Under the pieces are notes generated by a model, which made no database searches, was not told where the DNA came from, and saw only the letters and a program-made list of their open reading frames with translations. Shown piece by piece: positions 19,122 to 24,046 of a stretch of 37,475 nucleotides of DNA (position 1 is its first letter; each line of letters opens with the position of its first letter). Made by a program: the position numbers and the translations under genes. Location of the stretch: sequence record SRR31156797_6736; one strand, given 5' to 3'.

Positions 19122-19137
19122 CTTGTCGCATTAAACA

Positions 19138-19163
19138 TGGTGAGGAGAATTAACTTCTCACCA
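19138..19163 (+). terminator. Hairpin after ytfJ, possible weak terminator
   Basis: TGGTGAG...CTCACCA stem, poor T tract. Confidence 0.35.
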
Positions 19164-19180
19164 CCTCTTGCCTCCTCCTC

Positions 19181-19203
19181 TCATTGTTATATTATAACAT
19201 TCC
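19181..19203. promoter_or_regulatory. Zur box (zinc uptake regulator operator) overlapping the putative promoter
   Basis: Perfect 7-1-7 palindrome TGTTATA-T-TATAACA at 19185-19199 matching the gammaproteobacterial Zur consensus; TTGCCT (19168) and TATTAT (19190) could be -35/-10; His-rich genes follow. Confidence 0.9.
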
Positions 19204-19220
19204 TCAATAAACACCTTGTG

Positions 19221-19535
19221 ATGATCATGACCGACAGCCTGCATTCATTTCGTATCAAAGCTAATGTAGCTGCATTGGCATCTATTTTACTGATGCTATG
19301 GCTAAATTTTGCGGTTATCGAACACCAGCTTGATACATCATCGTCTCATCACAATGAACACCATTGCCAATTGTTTGCAGGCGTTAGCAATGGCTTAGCA
19401 CAACATGTTTCGGTTCTTCCCGTCTGGATTTCGCACAATTACCTAACGCCAAGCTCTGAACTGTTTAGCATTACTCTTCTCTACTTGGCCTATTTAGCCA
19501 GATCGCCGCCTGATCAATACGTTTACCCAGCATAA
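19221..19535 (+). CDS. Small His-containing membrane/exported protein, first gene of the zinc operon (DUF2607-like; candidate RAPP-type leader peptide)
   Basis: Start must lie after the Zur box (ATG 19221 or 19227, not 19137); hydrophobic segment VAALASILLMLWLNFAVI, then EH...HHNEHHCQLF, C-terminal YLARSPP. Confidence 0.7.
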   Translation: MIMTDSLHSFRIKANVAALASILLMLWLNFAVIEHQLDTSSSHHNEHHCQLFAGVSNGLAQHVSVLPVWISHNYLTPSSELFSITLLYLAYLARSPPDQYVYPA

Positions 19536-19585
19536 GCACAACCAACCAAACACAGTATTGATATAAATTTATTTTGGAGTTTTCG

Positions 19586-20293
19586 ATGTTTAACAAACCC
19601 CTATTAGCTCTTAGCATCACGGCAGCAATCACGAGTACAGCATTCGCACAGGAAGAATTTCGTCAACATGAAGCACATGTCCACGGTCATGTAGAGTTAA
19701 ATATTGCTCAAGACGGCCACGAACTATTAATGGAAATCACAGCTCCAGGAGCTGATGTTGTGGGCTTTGAACATGCGCCTGAAAATGATGAGCAGAAAGT
19801 GATTCTTAACAAAGCGCTTGAAACGTTAAACCATGCAGATACGTTATTCACTTTAGCGCCAGCCGCACATTGCCACCTTGAGCAAGCCTTCGTGAAACAC
19901 ACGTTAGGTGGTGAGCATGAAGAACATGAAGAACATGAAGAACATGACCATGATGACCATGCAGGTCACGATCACGACAAACACGATGAGCACGAACATC
20001 ATGACGACCATGACCACGACAAACATGATGAACACGAACATCATGACGACCATGAAGGGCACGATCACGACGAGCATCATGACCATGAACATGAACATGA
20101 AGAAGGCTCTCAACATGGTTCATTTAGCGCCCAATACACTTTCCACTGTGATGACATCACTCAGTTGAACAATATCAGCACTCACTGGTTTACTCAGTTC
20201 CCAGCAACCAAAGAAATCGAAGTGAACTTGCTCACAGATAAAGTTCAAACAGCACTCGAGCTTAACCCAAGCAAAACTCAAATTTCTCTATAA
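19586..20293 (+). CDS. zrgA: Periplasmic zinc-binding protein ZrgA (DUF2796)
   Basis: GGAG SD then ATG at 19586; signal peptide, RQHEAHVHG and VGFEHAP motifs, two Cys, long His/Asp/Glu loop; downstream of a Zur box. Confidence 0.88.
   Translation: MFNKPLLALSITAAITSTAFAQEEFRQHEAHVHGHVELNIAQDGHELLMEITAPGADVVGFEHAPENDEQKVILNKALETLNHADTLFTLAPAAHCHLEQAFVKHTLGGEHEEHEEHEEHDHDDHAGHDHDKHDEHEHHDDHDHDKHDEHEHHDDHEGHDHDEHHDHEHEHEEGSQHGSFSAQYTFHCDDITQLNNISTHWFTQFPATKEIEVNLLTDKVQTALELNPSKTQISL
19913..20104 (+). repeat. His/Asp/Glu-coding low-complexity tandem repeat within zrgA
   Basis: CATGAAGAA x3, then two imperfect 42-nt units (19967-20008, 20009-20050) both encoding HDHDKHDEHEHHDD. Confidence 0.9.
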
Positions 20294-20347: not shown

Positions 20348-21064
20348 ATGTCCAGCAATGAAAACCAATTCGATGCTCCCGTCATTAAGCTTAGCAACGT
20401 CCTGTTTCAGTGGCCCAATACTGACACAGCGACATTGGATATCGAGCAGCTCACGGTAAAACGAAACGAACACGTTTTTATCAAAGGTCCGAGCGGCTGC
20501 GGCAAATCAACGTTGCTGAGCTTGTTAACCGGAATCAATGCTGCCACACAAGGTCTGGTGGAGTTGTTAGATCAAGACTTAACCCAATTATCATCCAGTC
20601 AAAGAGATCGTTTTCGTGCTGATAACATTGGTTATATTTTTCAGCAATTTAACTTACTGCCTTACCTGTCGGTAGTTGAAAACATCATTTTGCCGTGCCA
20701 GTTTTCCTCCCTACGTAAACAGAATGTTTCTGGCAGCTTAGTTGAGCGAGCGCATGAGTTACTCGACAAGCTTCACCTTCCAGCCGCAGTGAGACAAAAG
20801 CCGGTTATCGATCTGAGTATTGGCCAACAACAGCGTGTTGCAGCGGCAAGAGCCTTAATTGGGGAGCCTAAAATCGTGATTGCAGATGAACCCACTTCGG
20901 CTCTGGATTACGACAATCGCAGCGCATTTATTGAGTTGTTAATGGAAGAAGCCAATCGCGTTGGCTCAACTCTGGTATTTGTCAGTCACGACCCAACGCT
21001 AGAGAGCCTTTTCGAGCGGGTAATCCATCTGCCTGAGATCAATCGTGCGGGAGGCAATTTATGA
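20348..21064 (+). CDS. zrgB: ABC ATP-binding protein (LolD/MacB-like) of the zinc locus
   Basis: GPSGCGKST, GYIFQQFNLLP, LSIGQQQRVAAARAL, ADEPTSALD, VSHD. Confidence 0.82.
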   Translation: MSSNENQFDAPVIKLSNVLFQWPNTDTATLDIEQLTVKRNEHVFIKGPSGCGKSTLLSLLTGINAATQGLVELLDQDLTQLSSSQRDRFRADNIGYIFQQFNLLPYLSVVENIILPCQFSSLRKQNVSGSLVERAHELLDKLHLPAAVRQKPVIDLSIGQQQRVAAARALIGEPKIVIADEPTSALDYDNRSAFIELLMEEANRVGSTLVFVSHDPTLESLFERVIHLPEINRAGGNL

Positions 21065-22320
21065 GCATTATTACTCGATTAGCCTGGAAAAGTTTATTAA
21101 ACCGAAAAACCACCGCCCTACTTACGATCCTGACTGTCGCTATCTCGGTGATATTGCTTATGGGGGTTGAGCGTATTCGAACTCAAGCCAAAAGCAGTTT
21201 CGCCAATACCGTGTCGGGTACTGACTTAATTGTTGGTGGACGTTCAGGACAGGTCAATCTTTTGCTTTATTCCGTTTTTCGTATTGGTAATGCCACCAAT
21301 AACATCGACTGGAAAAGCTATCAGGAATTCAGCAACCACAAATCGGTAAAATGGGCGATCCCAATTTCTCTAGGTGATTCCCACAAAGGCTTCCGCGTAA
21401 TGGGAACCAACCAGAGCTATTTTGACCATTTCCGCTATGGAAGTAAGCAACCACTTACTTTTTCTCAAGGGGAAGCGTTTTCTGACCTTTTTGAAACCGT
21501 CATTGGCTCCGATGTCGCGAAAAAACTCGGATACCAAATTGGCAGTGACATCATTATCGCTCATGGTATCAGTGATGTTGGTTTTAGCCGTCACGACAAT
21601 CTGCCATTCAAAGTCGTTGGAATATTAGCGCCGACAGGCACCCCTGTAGATAAAACGGTTCATGTCTCTTTAGAAGCGATTGAAGCGATACATGTTGGCT
21701 GGGAATCTGGGGCACACTTGGGTAACTCACCAAGTAAAGATCAACTGGAACAGCACAATTTTGAGCCCAAACAAATCACTGCGATGTTAATTGGACTGAA
21801 ATCCCGAATACAGACATTTGCGTTACAAAGACAAATTAACGAATACCGCAAAGAACCACTGAGCGCCATCATGCCTGGTGTGGCTTTGCAAGAGCTGTGG
21901 GGAATGATGTCTGTTGCAGAGCAAGCCTTGATGGCCGTATCGGTATTTGTCGTGATTGCAGGGTTACTGGGAATGTTAAGTAGCCTACTCACCAGCCTGC
22001 AGGAAAGGCGTCGAGAAATGTCTATTTTACGCGCGATGGGGGCGAGGCCAAAACACGTATTCTCACTTCTCGTTAGTGAAGCGAGCGTGTTAACCTTATT
22101 GGGAATTATTGTTGGCCTAACCGGACTCTACGCGCTGTTGCATCTCGCAGCCCCACTGATTGAAAGCCAGTACGGGATTAAAATCCAGCTCGAAGGTATT
22201 TCAAACTACGAGTGGCAACTGTTGGCTTATGTACAATGTGCTGGCATATTAATTGGCTTTATTCCTGCGATTCGAGCTTATCGACAATCTCTCAGCGACG
22301 GAATGACGATTAGGTTATAA
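21061..22320 (+). CDS. zrgC: ABC permease, MacB/FtsX (type VII) architecture
   Basis: TM1, large periplasmic domain (ISLGDSHKGFRVMGT, AHG, RHD), then ERRREMSILRAMGA and three further TMs; ATGA overlap with the ATPase. Confidence 0.82.
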   Translation: MSIITRLAWKSLLNRKTTALLTILTVAISVILLMGVERIRTQAKSSFANTVSGTDLIVGGRSGQVNLLLYSVFRIGNATNNIDWKSYQEFSNHKSVKWAIPISLGDSHKGFRVMGTNQSYFDHFRYGSKQPLTFSQGEAFSDLFETVIGSDVAKKLGYQIGSDIIIAHGISDVGFSRHDNLPFKVVGILAPTGTPVDKTVHVSLEAIEAIHVGWESGAHLGNSPSKDQLEQHNFEPKQITAMLIGLKSRIQTFALQRQINEYRKEPLSAIMPGVALQELWGMMSVAEQALMAVSVFVVIAGLLGMLSSLLTSLQERRREMSILRAMGARPKHVFSLLVSEASVLTLLGIIVGLTGLYALLHLAAPLIESQYGIKIQLEGISNYEWQLLAYVQCAGILIGFIPAIRAYRQSLSDGMTIRL

Positions 22321-22336: not shown

Positions 22337-22837
22337 ATGAAAAAACTGCTTTTATGTATGGTGTTGGTTTTGCTGCCAGCATTTGCATCAACTGTACAGG
22401 CAAATGATGATTTGCTTACTCTGGATTGGATCGACTTAGTACCAGAAAGTGAACGTAATCAGTTTAATCCACAAGGTATGCCTGCAGCTAACCACGACGG
22501 AAATGCTCCAGCACAACAGTCGCCAGTTGGCGCGGTTCGCCCGGAGCTTAACGGGAGTAAAGTTAAAATCCCAGGGTTTGTGATTCCGTTAGAAGGGGAT
22601 GAAAATACCGTCACTGAGTTTTTATTGGTGCCATATTTCGGGGCTTGTATCCACGTGCCACCACCCCCACCAAACCAGATTATCTATGTAAAGTTCCCTG
22701 AAGGCGCTCCTATTCAAGAGCTGTGGGATGTTATCTATGTGATCGGTACTTTAAAAACCGAAACGGTAAGTGTGGATCTTGCAGAAACCGCCTACGTCAT
22801 CGAAGGAACAGAAATTACAGAATACGACGATATGTAG
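22337..22837 (+). CDS. DUF3299 family exported protein, last gene of the zinc operon
   Basis: Signal peptide; W.DL.P, IPGFVIPLE, EFLLVPYFGACIHVPPPPPNQ motif. Confidence 0.85.
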   Translation: MKKLLLCMVLVLLPAFASTVQANDDLLTLDWIDLVPESERNQFNPQGMPAANHDGNAPAQQSPVGAVRPELNGSKVKIPGFVIPLEGDENTVTEFLLVPYFGACIHVPPPPPNQIIYVKFPEGAPIQELWDVIYVIGTLKTETVSVDLAETAYVIEGTEITEYDDM

Positions 22838-23149: not shown

Positions 23150-24046
23150 ATGGCCGACAAGAAAGAGCCTGTTGTTATAGAGCATGAGCCGACAACAGAG
23201 AGAAGTCAGGAAAAAAAATCAAACTACGTGAAAGACAGTGCAAGTAGGCTCTCATCTATCGCTCAACAGCACGGTATTGATGCCCTATTACACCGAGTTC
23301 CTCCGCAAAAGACACCGCTGGAAAGAGCACTCAAGCGAGAACGCGAACTCAAAGCGCAGCAGCAGAAAAACCTCGAACACATCATCAAACTGTCCCATGC
23401 CTCATGTAAAAACGAAACGGCAGGCGATCCTGATCAGGACTGGTTATTCCGCTTCTTTGAAATGGCTCAAGACATTCATAACTCGTCAATGCAACGCCTT
23501 TGGGCTCAGGTACTAAAACGAGAAGTCACCAACCCCGGTTTTACTTCGATGAAAGCGCTCAACGTCCTGAAAGATATGACCCCGAAAGAGGCGCAAATTC
23601 TTCAACGTGCAGCGGCTTTATCCTGCAGCTTCGGCAGTGATCCCAGCCTTAAACTGTTATTCGGCATGAAAATACCTAGCGGTTTGTTCAGTCTCGGCAA
23701 ACGTGACTCAGTTTCGACGATCAATATTGGCAATCACCAGTTACCTTATTCCAGCTTGCTGGTATTAATCGAGTTGGGGTTAGTGCACGCAACAGAATTA
23801 GAGTCCGGAGAAATTGAGATCGATCCGCCACTATTATTAAGTTATCAGGGAAAAAACCTCTCCTTGCAGGCGTCATCAAAAGGGGTAAAACTGCTGTACT
23901 ACCGCTTTAGCCCAACCGGAAACGAACTCTGTCGTCTGCTCGGTCATAAACCCAATATGCAGTATTACGATCAGGTCGTGGCAATGTTGAGCCAGAAGTT
24001 CACCGTCCATACCGATGTGAAAAGCTCAATCCATCACACAGTATAA
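23150..24046 (+). CDS. Conserved hypothetical protein, TIGR03899/DUF2806-like
   Basis: DPDQDWLFRFFEMA.DI....MQRLWAQVLKREV.NPG..SMKAL and YYRFSPTGNEL motifs; AGGA SD. Confidence 0.75.
   Translation: MADKKEPVVIEHEPTTERSQEKKSNYVKDSASRLSSIAQQHGIDALLHRVPPQKTPLERALKRERELKAQQQKNLEHIIKLSHASCKNETAGDPDQDWLFRFFEMAQDIHNSSMQRLWAQVLKREVTNPGFTSMKALNVLKDMTPKEAQILQRAAALSCSFGSDPSLKLLFGMKIPSGLFSLGKRDSVSTINIGNHQLPYSSLLVLIELGLVHATELESGEIEIDPPLLLSYQGKNLSLQASSKGVKLLYYRFSPTGNELCRLLGHKPNMQYYDQVVAMLSQKFTVHTDVKSSIHHTV

Follow-up and report, generated by a model that had tools for sequence, protein, structure and literature searches.

Leader peptides that arrest their own ribosome and respond to a metal have been described in the DUF2946 family. 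CruR (Bp2923) from Bordetella pertussis consists of a signal peptide, a CXXC motif, 45 residues, a RAPP motif and a 3-residue tail, and the length of its spacer varies within 1-2 residues across >2000 proteins. Mutation of RAPP abolished downstream expression, mutation of CXXC abolished the copper response, and changing the spacer by plus or minus five residues impaired regulation (PMC9426467). In vitro, a toeprint mapped the arrest to the point where its two Pro codons occupy the P and A sites (PMC12992588). CutF from Rhodobacter capsulatus, also of DUF2946, is co-translationally exported and carries a periplasmic metal motif; it stalls at C-terminal prolines, and the ribosome then melts a stem-loop that shields cutO's Shine-Dalgarno (SD) sequence (preprint 10.1101/2025.02.05.636593). 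Here we analyzed a 104-residue open reading frame (ORF) located ahead of the zinc-uptake gene zrgA, at positions 19221-19535 on the + strand of sequence record SRR31156797_6736 (the window, meaning the whole stretch of 37,475 nucleotides). Comparison of sequences indicates that it is probably an arrest leader of the RAPP class, in a zinc- and His-based variant. To our knowledge, a self-stalling, metal-sensing peptide that controls the next gene has so far been shown only for copper. Metal-sensing leaders of the RAPP type are already known; what would be new in this case is that the operon concerns zinc, the site is built on His, the core is RSPP and the Pfam family is a separate one.

The ORF also resembles ApdA, ApdP and SecM (RAGP), which are small exported or membrane proteins with a C-terminal R-[A/G/S/D]-P-P core and a variable region N-terminal to it, and whose arrest controls a downstream gene (PMC12992588). 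They differ in that they monitor Sec/YidC activity from a position upstream of sec or yidC genes, and have neither a metal-ligand cluster nor a fixed ruler to one. At position 2 of the ApdA/ApdP motif, Gly permits arrest fully, and Ser, Asp or Pro permit it in part; RSPP was recovered from random arrest screens in E. coli, and RSPP and RDPP are strongly under-represented in proteomes (PMC12992588). The same study found small RAPP/RGPP proteins preceding metal-homeostasis genes, most of them copper-related or for TonB-dependent receptors; its survey extracted RAPP and RGPP only, and the word "zinc" is absent from its main text.

By profile match, the ORF is identified as the Vibrio protein ZrgD of Pfam family DUF2607 (PF10795; score 76.1 bits, gathering cut-off 24, E 2.8e-21), residues 13-97 aligning with positions 13-99 of the 100-position profile. 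The initial annotation knew the gene only as an uncharacterised operon member, in agreement with PMC9820375 and PMC9817125. ZrgD of V. cholerae is described as a hypothetical protein of 101 residues with a single transmembrane segment (PMC9820375). In V. parahaemolyticus, the DUF2607 gene VP_RS01475 is promoter-proximal in the zrg operon and is up-regulated 147-fold under zinc limitation (PMC9817125, Table 1). The Zrg zinc-uptake system is reported to be important for growth of Vibrio when zinc is limiting (PMC9820375, PMC9817125), and in their available portions both papers give neither a function nor an arrest motif for ZrgD/DUF2607. A literature search retrieved no proposal of an arrest role for ZrgD/DUF2607; supplements and the original V. 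cholerae zrg paper were outside its scope, and an earlier mention is possible.

The coordinates first given for the ORF, its His/Cys cluster, the RSPP motif, the stop codon and the 50-nt gap to the zrgA ATG (19586) were all exact to the base. The placement of the ORF between a Zur box and zrgA was likewise confirmed, by a perfect palindrome at 19184-19198 and by assignment of zrgA to PF10986. The leader is composed of the following parts:

19221..19535, + strand: zrgD-type leader ORF, 104 residues, Pfam DUF2607 (PF10795 match)
19260..19319, + strand: hydrophobic segment, residues 14-33, following R11/K13; predicted N-in signal anchor (sequence and AlphaFold2 helix 6-37)
19323..19367, + strand: candidate metal site H35, H43, H44, H47, H48, C49 (from conservation; metal binding predicted)
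19368..19499, + strand: spacer, residues 50-93, 44 residues, fixed in length and variable in sequence (family alignment)
19491..19511, + strand: putative arrest motif Y-L-A-R-S-P-P (R94, P96 and P97 invariant in the family)
19512..19535, + strand: variable tail DQYVYPA (7 codons) and TAA stop (19533-19535; family comparison)

The 104-residue translation of 19221-19535 is MIMTDSLHSFRIKANVAALASILLMLWLNFAVIEHQLDTSSSHHNEHHCQLFAGVSNGLAQHVSVLPVWISHNYLTPSSELFSITLLYLAYLARSPPDQYVYPA. The start is taken as the ATG at 19221; another ATG follows at 19227, and a GTG in the same frame stands at 19218. The predicted anchor was called from the sequence and the AlphaFold2 helix. E34/H35 lies at 19320-19325 and HHNEHHC (H43-C49) at 19347-19367, while R94-S95-P96-P97 occupies 19500-19511, seven codons ahead of the stop. 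By comparison with the CruR toeprint (PMC12992588), the stall is predicted to occur when codon P96 (19506-19508) occupies the P site and codon P97 (19509-19511) the A site. In an AlphaFold2 model built from the family alignment, residues 6-37 and 49-60 form helices and residues 61-104 are free of secondary structure (mean predicted local distance difference test score (pLDDT) 77.8, predicted template modelling score (pTM) 0.41).

Conservation was then analyzed across the family. A word-indexed search yielded 13 relatives, and a profile search of 1.84 billion representative proteins yielded 71 at E up to 0.001 (representatives at 50% identity); motifs and spacings were counted in 84 family proteins, and column conservation was measured in a 78-sequence alignment. 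The conservation of RxPP anticipated for orthologues was found in 80 of 84 proteins, close to the C-terminus, as RSPP (60), RAPP (12), RDPP (4), RGPP (3) and REPP (1). The other four look like frameshifted or chimeric predictions, since their profile match ends at positions 64-86 and they diverge from intact relatives (for P0059/P0060, the intact relative is L030). Position 2 (S, A, D, G and, once, E) nearly coincides with the arrest-permissive set (PMC12992588). H35, H47, C49, R94, P96 and P97 are invariant in the 78 sequences, in line with the expected conservation of the His/Cys cluster; H44 is conserved in at least 90%, while A93 occurs in 73 and Y91 in 45 of the 78. The family consensus at the metal site is HHxxHxCQLF, and the window has HHNEHHC with one Cys.

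The distance from the conserved Cys to the Arg is 44 residues in 75 of the 80 RxPP proteins, the others having 45 (3), 43 (1) and 47 (1). A spacer of about 45 residues had been proposed; the fixed length stands, and the exact count from C49 to R94 in the window is 44. The predicted contrast between this fixed length and a variable middle was also found, as seen from the mean top-residue frequency and gap fraction of each segment:

N-terminus: top-residue frequency 0.20, gap fraction 0.39
Transmembrane segment: top-residue frequency 0.42, gap fraction 0.06
His/Cys block: top-residue frequency 0.61, gap fraction 0.00
Spacer 53-90: top-residue frequency 0.27, gap fraction 0.00
YLARSPP: top-residue frequency 0.81, gap fraction 0.00
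Tail: top-residue frequency 0.12, gap fraction 0.39

A poorly conserved stretch that holds an exact length is, judged from the alignment, the signature of a ruler and not of a folded domain. The tail after RxPP is unconserved throughout the family and comprises 1-26 residues, mostly 2-3. Arg (AGA/CGT/CGC/CGA) and Pro (CCG/CCA/CCT/CCC) codons vary synonymously between loci, and selection therefore acts on the peptide. Since motif, His/Cys ligands and spacing are kept across 71 representatives at 50% identity, the leader feature is, by this comparison, far beyond chance.

The likeness to CruR claimed in the initial annotation proved close. Both are the small first ORF of a metal-uptake operon, carry an N-terminal export signal (in the ORF a predicted anchor) and a conserved metal-ligand motif (in the ORF a candidate metal site), and have a fixed spacer (45 residues in CruR, 44 here) leading to a C-terminal R-x-P-P with a short tail (3 and 7 residues) ahead of an envelope uptake component (PMC9426467 for CruR). 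CruR differs in its metal (copper) and in having CXXC and RAPP, whereas the ORF has H..H..HxC with a single Cys, RSPP and a zinc operon; CruR also acts through Rho-dependent termination over a 162-bp intergenic region, and its signal peptide is dispensable (PMC9426467). CutF had been grouped with CruR as a CxxC/RAPP protein, but it actually has CXXXC and a PPP-rich motif, with a stall sensitive to elongation factor P (EF-P) (preprint 10.1101/2025.02.05.636593). Its output logic is that seen in 29-31 of 47 relatives of the ORF; it differs in that copper induces the stall and turns on a detoxifying oxidase, whereas the operon of the ORF serves uptake. As to the compartment sensed, cytoplasmic copper has been argued for CruR and periplasmic copper for CutF. 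On all architectural counts the ORF is like CruR and CutF.

The suggested profile-profile comparison with DUF2946 gave a different answer. CruR belongs to DUF2946 and the ORF to DUF2607, and hhalign of the 78 DUF2607 sequences against 24 DUF2946 ORFs extracted from 30 loci returned a probability of 9% (E 0.0036). Whether the run was in local, low-mact or global mode, confident alignment was confined to the ARxPP end; for this reason we do not file the ORF under DUF2946. The DUF2946 hidden Markov model PF11162 had no match to the window protein at E up to 1, and gave weak matches to 4 of 78 relatives (best E 0.0044). The CXXC/CXXXC of DUF2946 is absent from the window protein; the outlying DUF2607 member L023 bears CQIC, and hints at a bridge between the families. 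The spacing from metal motif to RxPP is 44 in the window and 43-47 in the 24 DUF2946 ORFs. In a comparison of language-model features with DUF2607 excluded, DUF2946 clusters came nearest (16 of 30 matches, score 0.92, 155-156 of 256 features shared), a proximity we treat as a lead only. Common descent of DUF2607 and DUF2946 is possible.

To describe the genomic setting, 53 loci and the window were compared (47 loci after removal of duplicates). A genome search with the Pfam model placed the family in 85 of 201 sampled Vibrionaceae genomes and in 3 of 301 genomes of a class-wide sample, one of the three being the Vibrio used as its centre. The motif pattern located the ORF in 52 loci, the two misses being the non-Vibrionaceae loci L023 and L024. 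A ZrgA homologue lies downstream in 52 of 52 Vibrionaceae loci, 20-234 nt past the stop. Upstream, all 47 non-redundant loci carry the Zur palindrome, perfect in 41 and otherwise with a single mismatch, at a distance of 156-181 nt from the conserved Cys codon.

Family members also occur beside other envelope genes, and a modular leader therefore fits better than a dedicated Zrg subunit. L023 (1489-1767, - strand) encodes EEHDEH..CQIC, a 45-residue spacer, RAPP and a 3-residue tail, followed by a 396-residue protein with a C-terminal Phe and no Pfam match. L024 (1483-1782, + strand) has RAPP after a 47-residue spacer, and its downstream neighbour is like that of L023, with a weak beta-barrel match (BBP2 porin, E 0.0015). 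The hosts of both are gammaproteobacteria outside Vibrionaceae, and the downstream proteins have roughly 400 residues; these loci may represent a bridge between DUF2607 and DUF2946 as well as a new regulated outer-membrane channel. A second DUF2607 copy in one Vibrio genome (L084, 2506-2757, - strand) has HHC, a 44-residue spacer, RSPP and a 2-residue tail, and lies ~305 nt upstream of genes for a family-5 solute-binding protein (L084, 614-2200, - strand) and a permease of the ATP-binding cassette (ABC) type. An AT-rich palindromic stretch just before the solute-binding protein gene resembles a Fur or Zur box.

We next examined how an arrest could act on zrgA. At many loci, the zrgA SD region is complementary to the bases that directly follow the Pro-Pro codons, and the sequences involved vary from lineage to lineage. 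Examples are AATCCTAAC with GTTAGGATT, CCTAATC with GATTAGG, AACTCCA with TGGAGTT, and GACTTCATC with GATGGAGTC, the last spanning an 18-codon tail. Duplex energies were computed between 24 nt from the first Pro codon and 25 nt ending at the zrgA ATG, with 78 control segments per ORF. In 29 of 47 loci, the post-Pro-Pro segment formed a better duplex than any of the 78 controls taken from its own ORF (mean -10.1 kcal/mol, controls -5.7 kcal/mol), and with homology-guided zrgA starts the pairing was outstanding in 31 of 47; after clustering at 60% identity it held in 12 of 24 clusters. Cognate and non-cognate partners were compared to control for the generic complementarity of CCNCCN to SD sequences. 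Cognate pairs averaged -10.13, non-cognate pairs -6.14; the cognate pair ranked first among all partners in 19 of 47 loci, and 32 of 47 had it within the top tenth.

Taken with the invariant ligands, the RxPP motif, the ruler and the synteny with zrgA, this pairing in about two thirds of the relatives gives the claim of an arrest leader strong comparative support; the window itself does not show the pairing. We consider it reasonably likely that the ORF is a ribosome-arrest leader of the RAPP class, acting mainly in cis, for the zinc-uptake genes from zrgA onward.

In the mechanism we propose, transcription would begin at the Zur-repressed promoter, and the nascent chain would place its N-terminal anchor in the membrane, exposing the His3Cys cluster. 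Peptide-bond formation would stall once the ribosome has reached R94-S95-P96 and the Pro97 codon has entered the A site. The cluster would then be 47 residues from the peptidyl-transferase centre, approximately one exit tunnel plus one translocon, and would sit just past the tunnel, and past the translocon if the chain is inserted N-in. The stalled ribosome would cover the mRNA directly after the Pro-Pro codons, the segment that is otherwise predicted to pair with the zrgA SD in most relatives, so that arrest would open zrgA and release would close it. Zinc binding would fold the cluster and alter the pull on the chain, which in turn would change how long the arrest lasts. For the direction of control we lean, with low confidence, towards release of the arrest by zinc, since this follows CruR logic and suits an uptake operon; when zinc returns, transporter synthesis would be damped faster than via Zur. 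The opposite, CutF-like direction is an alternative, in which metal-stabilised arrest would serve as substrate induction.

A wider reading, which we put forward tentatively, would make the leader a co-translational transmembrane zinc sensor. The ruler-tethered His3Cys cluster would sample periplasmic zinc at the translocon mouth, set the lifetime of the RSPP arrest and in this way, without Zur, gate either translation of zrgA or read-through into it. In effect, the operon would compute a cytoplasm starved of zinc (Zur) AND the state of periplasmic zinc (ZrgD), and DUF2607 and DUF2946 would be two arms of one ruler-type metal-sensing superfamily, in which a Cys/His swap sets the metal.

Several results weigh against the proposed arrest leader. 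Single knock-outs of zrgD or zrgE left growth with zinc chelators unaffected (PMC9820375, citing its ref. 15). In ApdA/ApdP, arrest is permitted only in part by RSPP (PMC12992588), and it could therefore be weak here or relieved by EF-P. The spacer has a pLDDT of 70-79, which means that some packing is possible, and the sequence upstream of the leader's own ATG contains no clear SD. On the output side, 16-18 of 47 loci lack outstanding pairing, Pro-Pro codons are intrinsically complementary to G-rich SDs, and the Wilcoxon p-values are inflated because the loci are related. Masking the stalled ribosome (first Pro in the P site) raised the predicted unpaired probability of the SD/start modestly, from 0.42 to 0.53, with a gain >0.2 in only 8 of 47 loci, and a drop >0.2 in none. 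In the window, the post-Pro-Pro segment shows no anti-SD to the zrgA SD (-4.7 kcal/mol, rank 55 of 78), nor does its closest relative L001; predicted SD accessibility goes from 0.48 free to 0.43 with the mask, and folding of 19470-19620 gave no stability beyond that of shuffles (z 0.11). Equal or better pairing was obtained with 35 of 43 non-cognate partners, and a scan of the whole window ORF for an anti-SD yielded only weak upstream candidates (-9.7 kcal/mol or weaker).

The minimum-free-energy folds of the window instead contain a different helix:

19513..19562, + strand: 8-bp helix of ATCAATAC (19513-19520) with GTATTGAT (19555-19562)

Its 5' arm begins 2 nt past the Pro-Pro codons and would sit inside the stalled ribosome; its 3' arm lies 24-31 nt before the zrgA ATG and ends 14 nt before the SD, which is outside the helix. 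Directly after the stop follows the C/A-rich, G-poor GCACAACCAACCAAACACAG (19536-19555), which could be a rut-like (Rho-utilization) or enhancer-like element; the stretch is common to the window and its closest relative L001 and is not found at the other loci. In the window, arrest could thus be coupled to zrgA by a weaker stand-by-site effect or by CruR-like Rho polarity.

Under the latter, the stalled ribosome would block Rho loading and release would permit premature termination before zrgA, so that polarity, not SD unmasking, would be the output. CruR works in this way (PMC9426467), and the missing anti-SD and the G-poor opening of the intergenic region agree with it; this route may operate in the window itself. 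The intergenic region of the window is only 50 nt long (C 9, G 7), however, which is short for a rut site, and most relatives have SD pairing instead, making this very improbable as the general explanation. A leader that monitors membrane insertion or secretion, as do SecM, MifM and VemP, or plain translational coupling, would dispense with zinc sensing and leave the His/Cys residues to some other use. An anti-SD at the end of an upstream ORF does also give ordinary translational coupling. The genes downstream, however, are for zinc uptake under a Zur box in 47 of 47 loci and not Sec/YidC components, and the invariant H/H/C at a fixed distance from the arrest point parallels the CXXC of the CruR copper response; we regard such a leader as improbable.

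Somewhat less improbable, though still unlikely, is that ZrgD serves the Zrg transporter as a zinc chaperone or as a stable subunit that spans the membrane once. Its His cluster would then handle zinc for ZrgA or the permease, with ARSPP as a structural or contact motif and the Pro-Pro pause incidental. Annotation and published discussion treat ZrgD as a protein of the operon with a possible part in zinc transfer, and a zrgABCDE knock-out was reported to be very slightly worse than zrgABC (PMC9820375); the transmembrane segment and His cluster are conserved, and AlphaFold2 confidence is moderate throughout. Against this, it is rare for a folded or contact domain to hold one exact length across 44 residues that are so poorly conserved (gap fraction 0.00), and RxPP, which is selected against in proteomes (PMC12992588), stands here at the C-terminus before a random tail. 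A subunit would also leave the SD pairing after the Pro-Pro codons unexplained, does not account for family members beside unrelated envelope genes, and sits poorly with the lack of a growth phenotype of the single zrgD knock-out (PMC9820375). Such a role could coexist with that of a leader.

If the arrest leader is borne out, ZrgD, an unexplained gene of the Vibrio zinc-uptake system, would gain a function, and a post-transcriptional layer would lie beneath Zur. Nascent-chain metal sensing, which in CruR and CutF involves copper and Cys, would then include zinc and His within a distinct Pfam family, and surveys limited to RAPP/RGPP would be seen to overlook families based on RSPP. In laboratory force-profile experiments, zinc-dependent folding of a nascent zinc finger reportedly releases SecM arrest. 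The exact 44-residue ruler would be a natural counterpart of such experiments, and opens to direct test the long-standing question of the point on the exit path at which a nascent chain is able to sense a ligand.

Two other features of the ORF were considered and set aside. A longer, 132-residue frame from the in-frame ATG at 19137 is probably unused, because it crosses the Zur box; the extension (19137-19220) also spans the hairpin after ytfJ (~19139-19162), and public predictions such as P0002 take this longer frame, probably wrongly. LPVWIS in the window resembles the PVWIS within the E. coli SecM arrest sequence FxxxxWIxxxxGIRAGP. The likeness of PVWIS (residues 67-71, 19419-19433) was judged probably coincidental, since only the 14 closest relatives keep it and ~30 residues separate it from the Pro-Pro.

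The leader and the zrg operon have ytfJ as their upstream neighbour. The control region and the remaining genes are:

19184..19198, no strand: Zur box palindrome TGTTATATTATAACA, perfect, recurring in relatives
19168..19195, + strand: promoter-like site with -35 TTGCCT, 16-nt spacer and -10 TATTAT (consensus scan)
19576..19588, + strand: zrgA SD GGAG (19576-19579) and ATG (19586-19588), from the sequence; the N-termini of the relatives' ZrgA align from the same ATG
19586-20293, + strand: zrgA (Pfam PF10986, E 9.6e-48)
20348-21064, + strand: ABC ATPase (Pfam PF00005)
21061-22320, + strand: FtsX/MacB-type permease (Pfam PF02687+PF12704)
22337-22837, + strand: DUF3299 protein (Pfam PF11736)

The -10 of the promoter-like site overlaps the Zur box; by itself the promoter scan is not significant (2 sites, 1.3 expected in shuffles). 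The names zrgB and zrgC for the ATPase and the permease are swapped between Table 1 of PMC9817125 and PMC9820375, and the DUF2607 gene is zrgD in both. The window protein has 55-61% identity to the V. fluvialis and V. furnissii forms, and the closest genome record is a Vibrio sp. metagenome-assembled genome with 92% identity over the ORF. About 300 nt past the zrg operon lies a gene for a DUF2806 protein (23150-24046, + strand, E 3.8e-76) with a weak Abi_alpha match, which appears unrelated to the leader.

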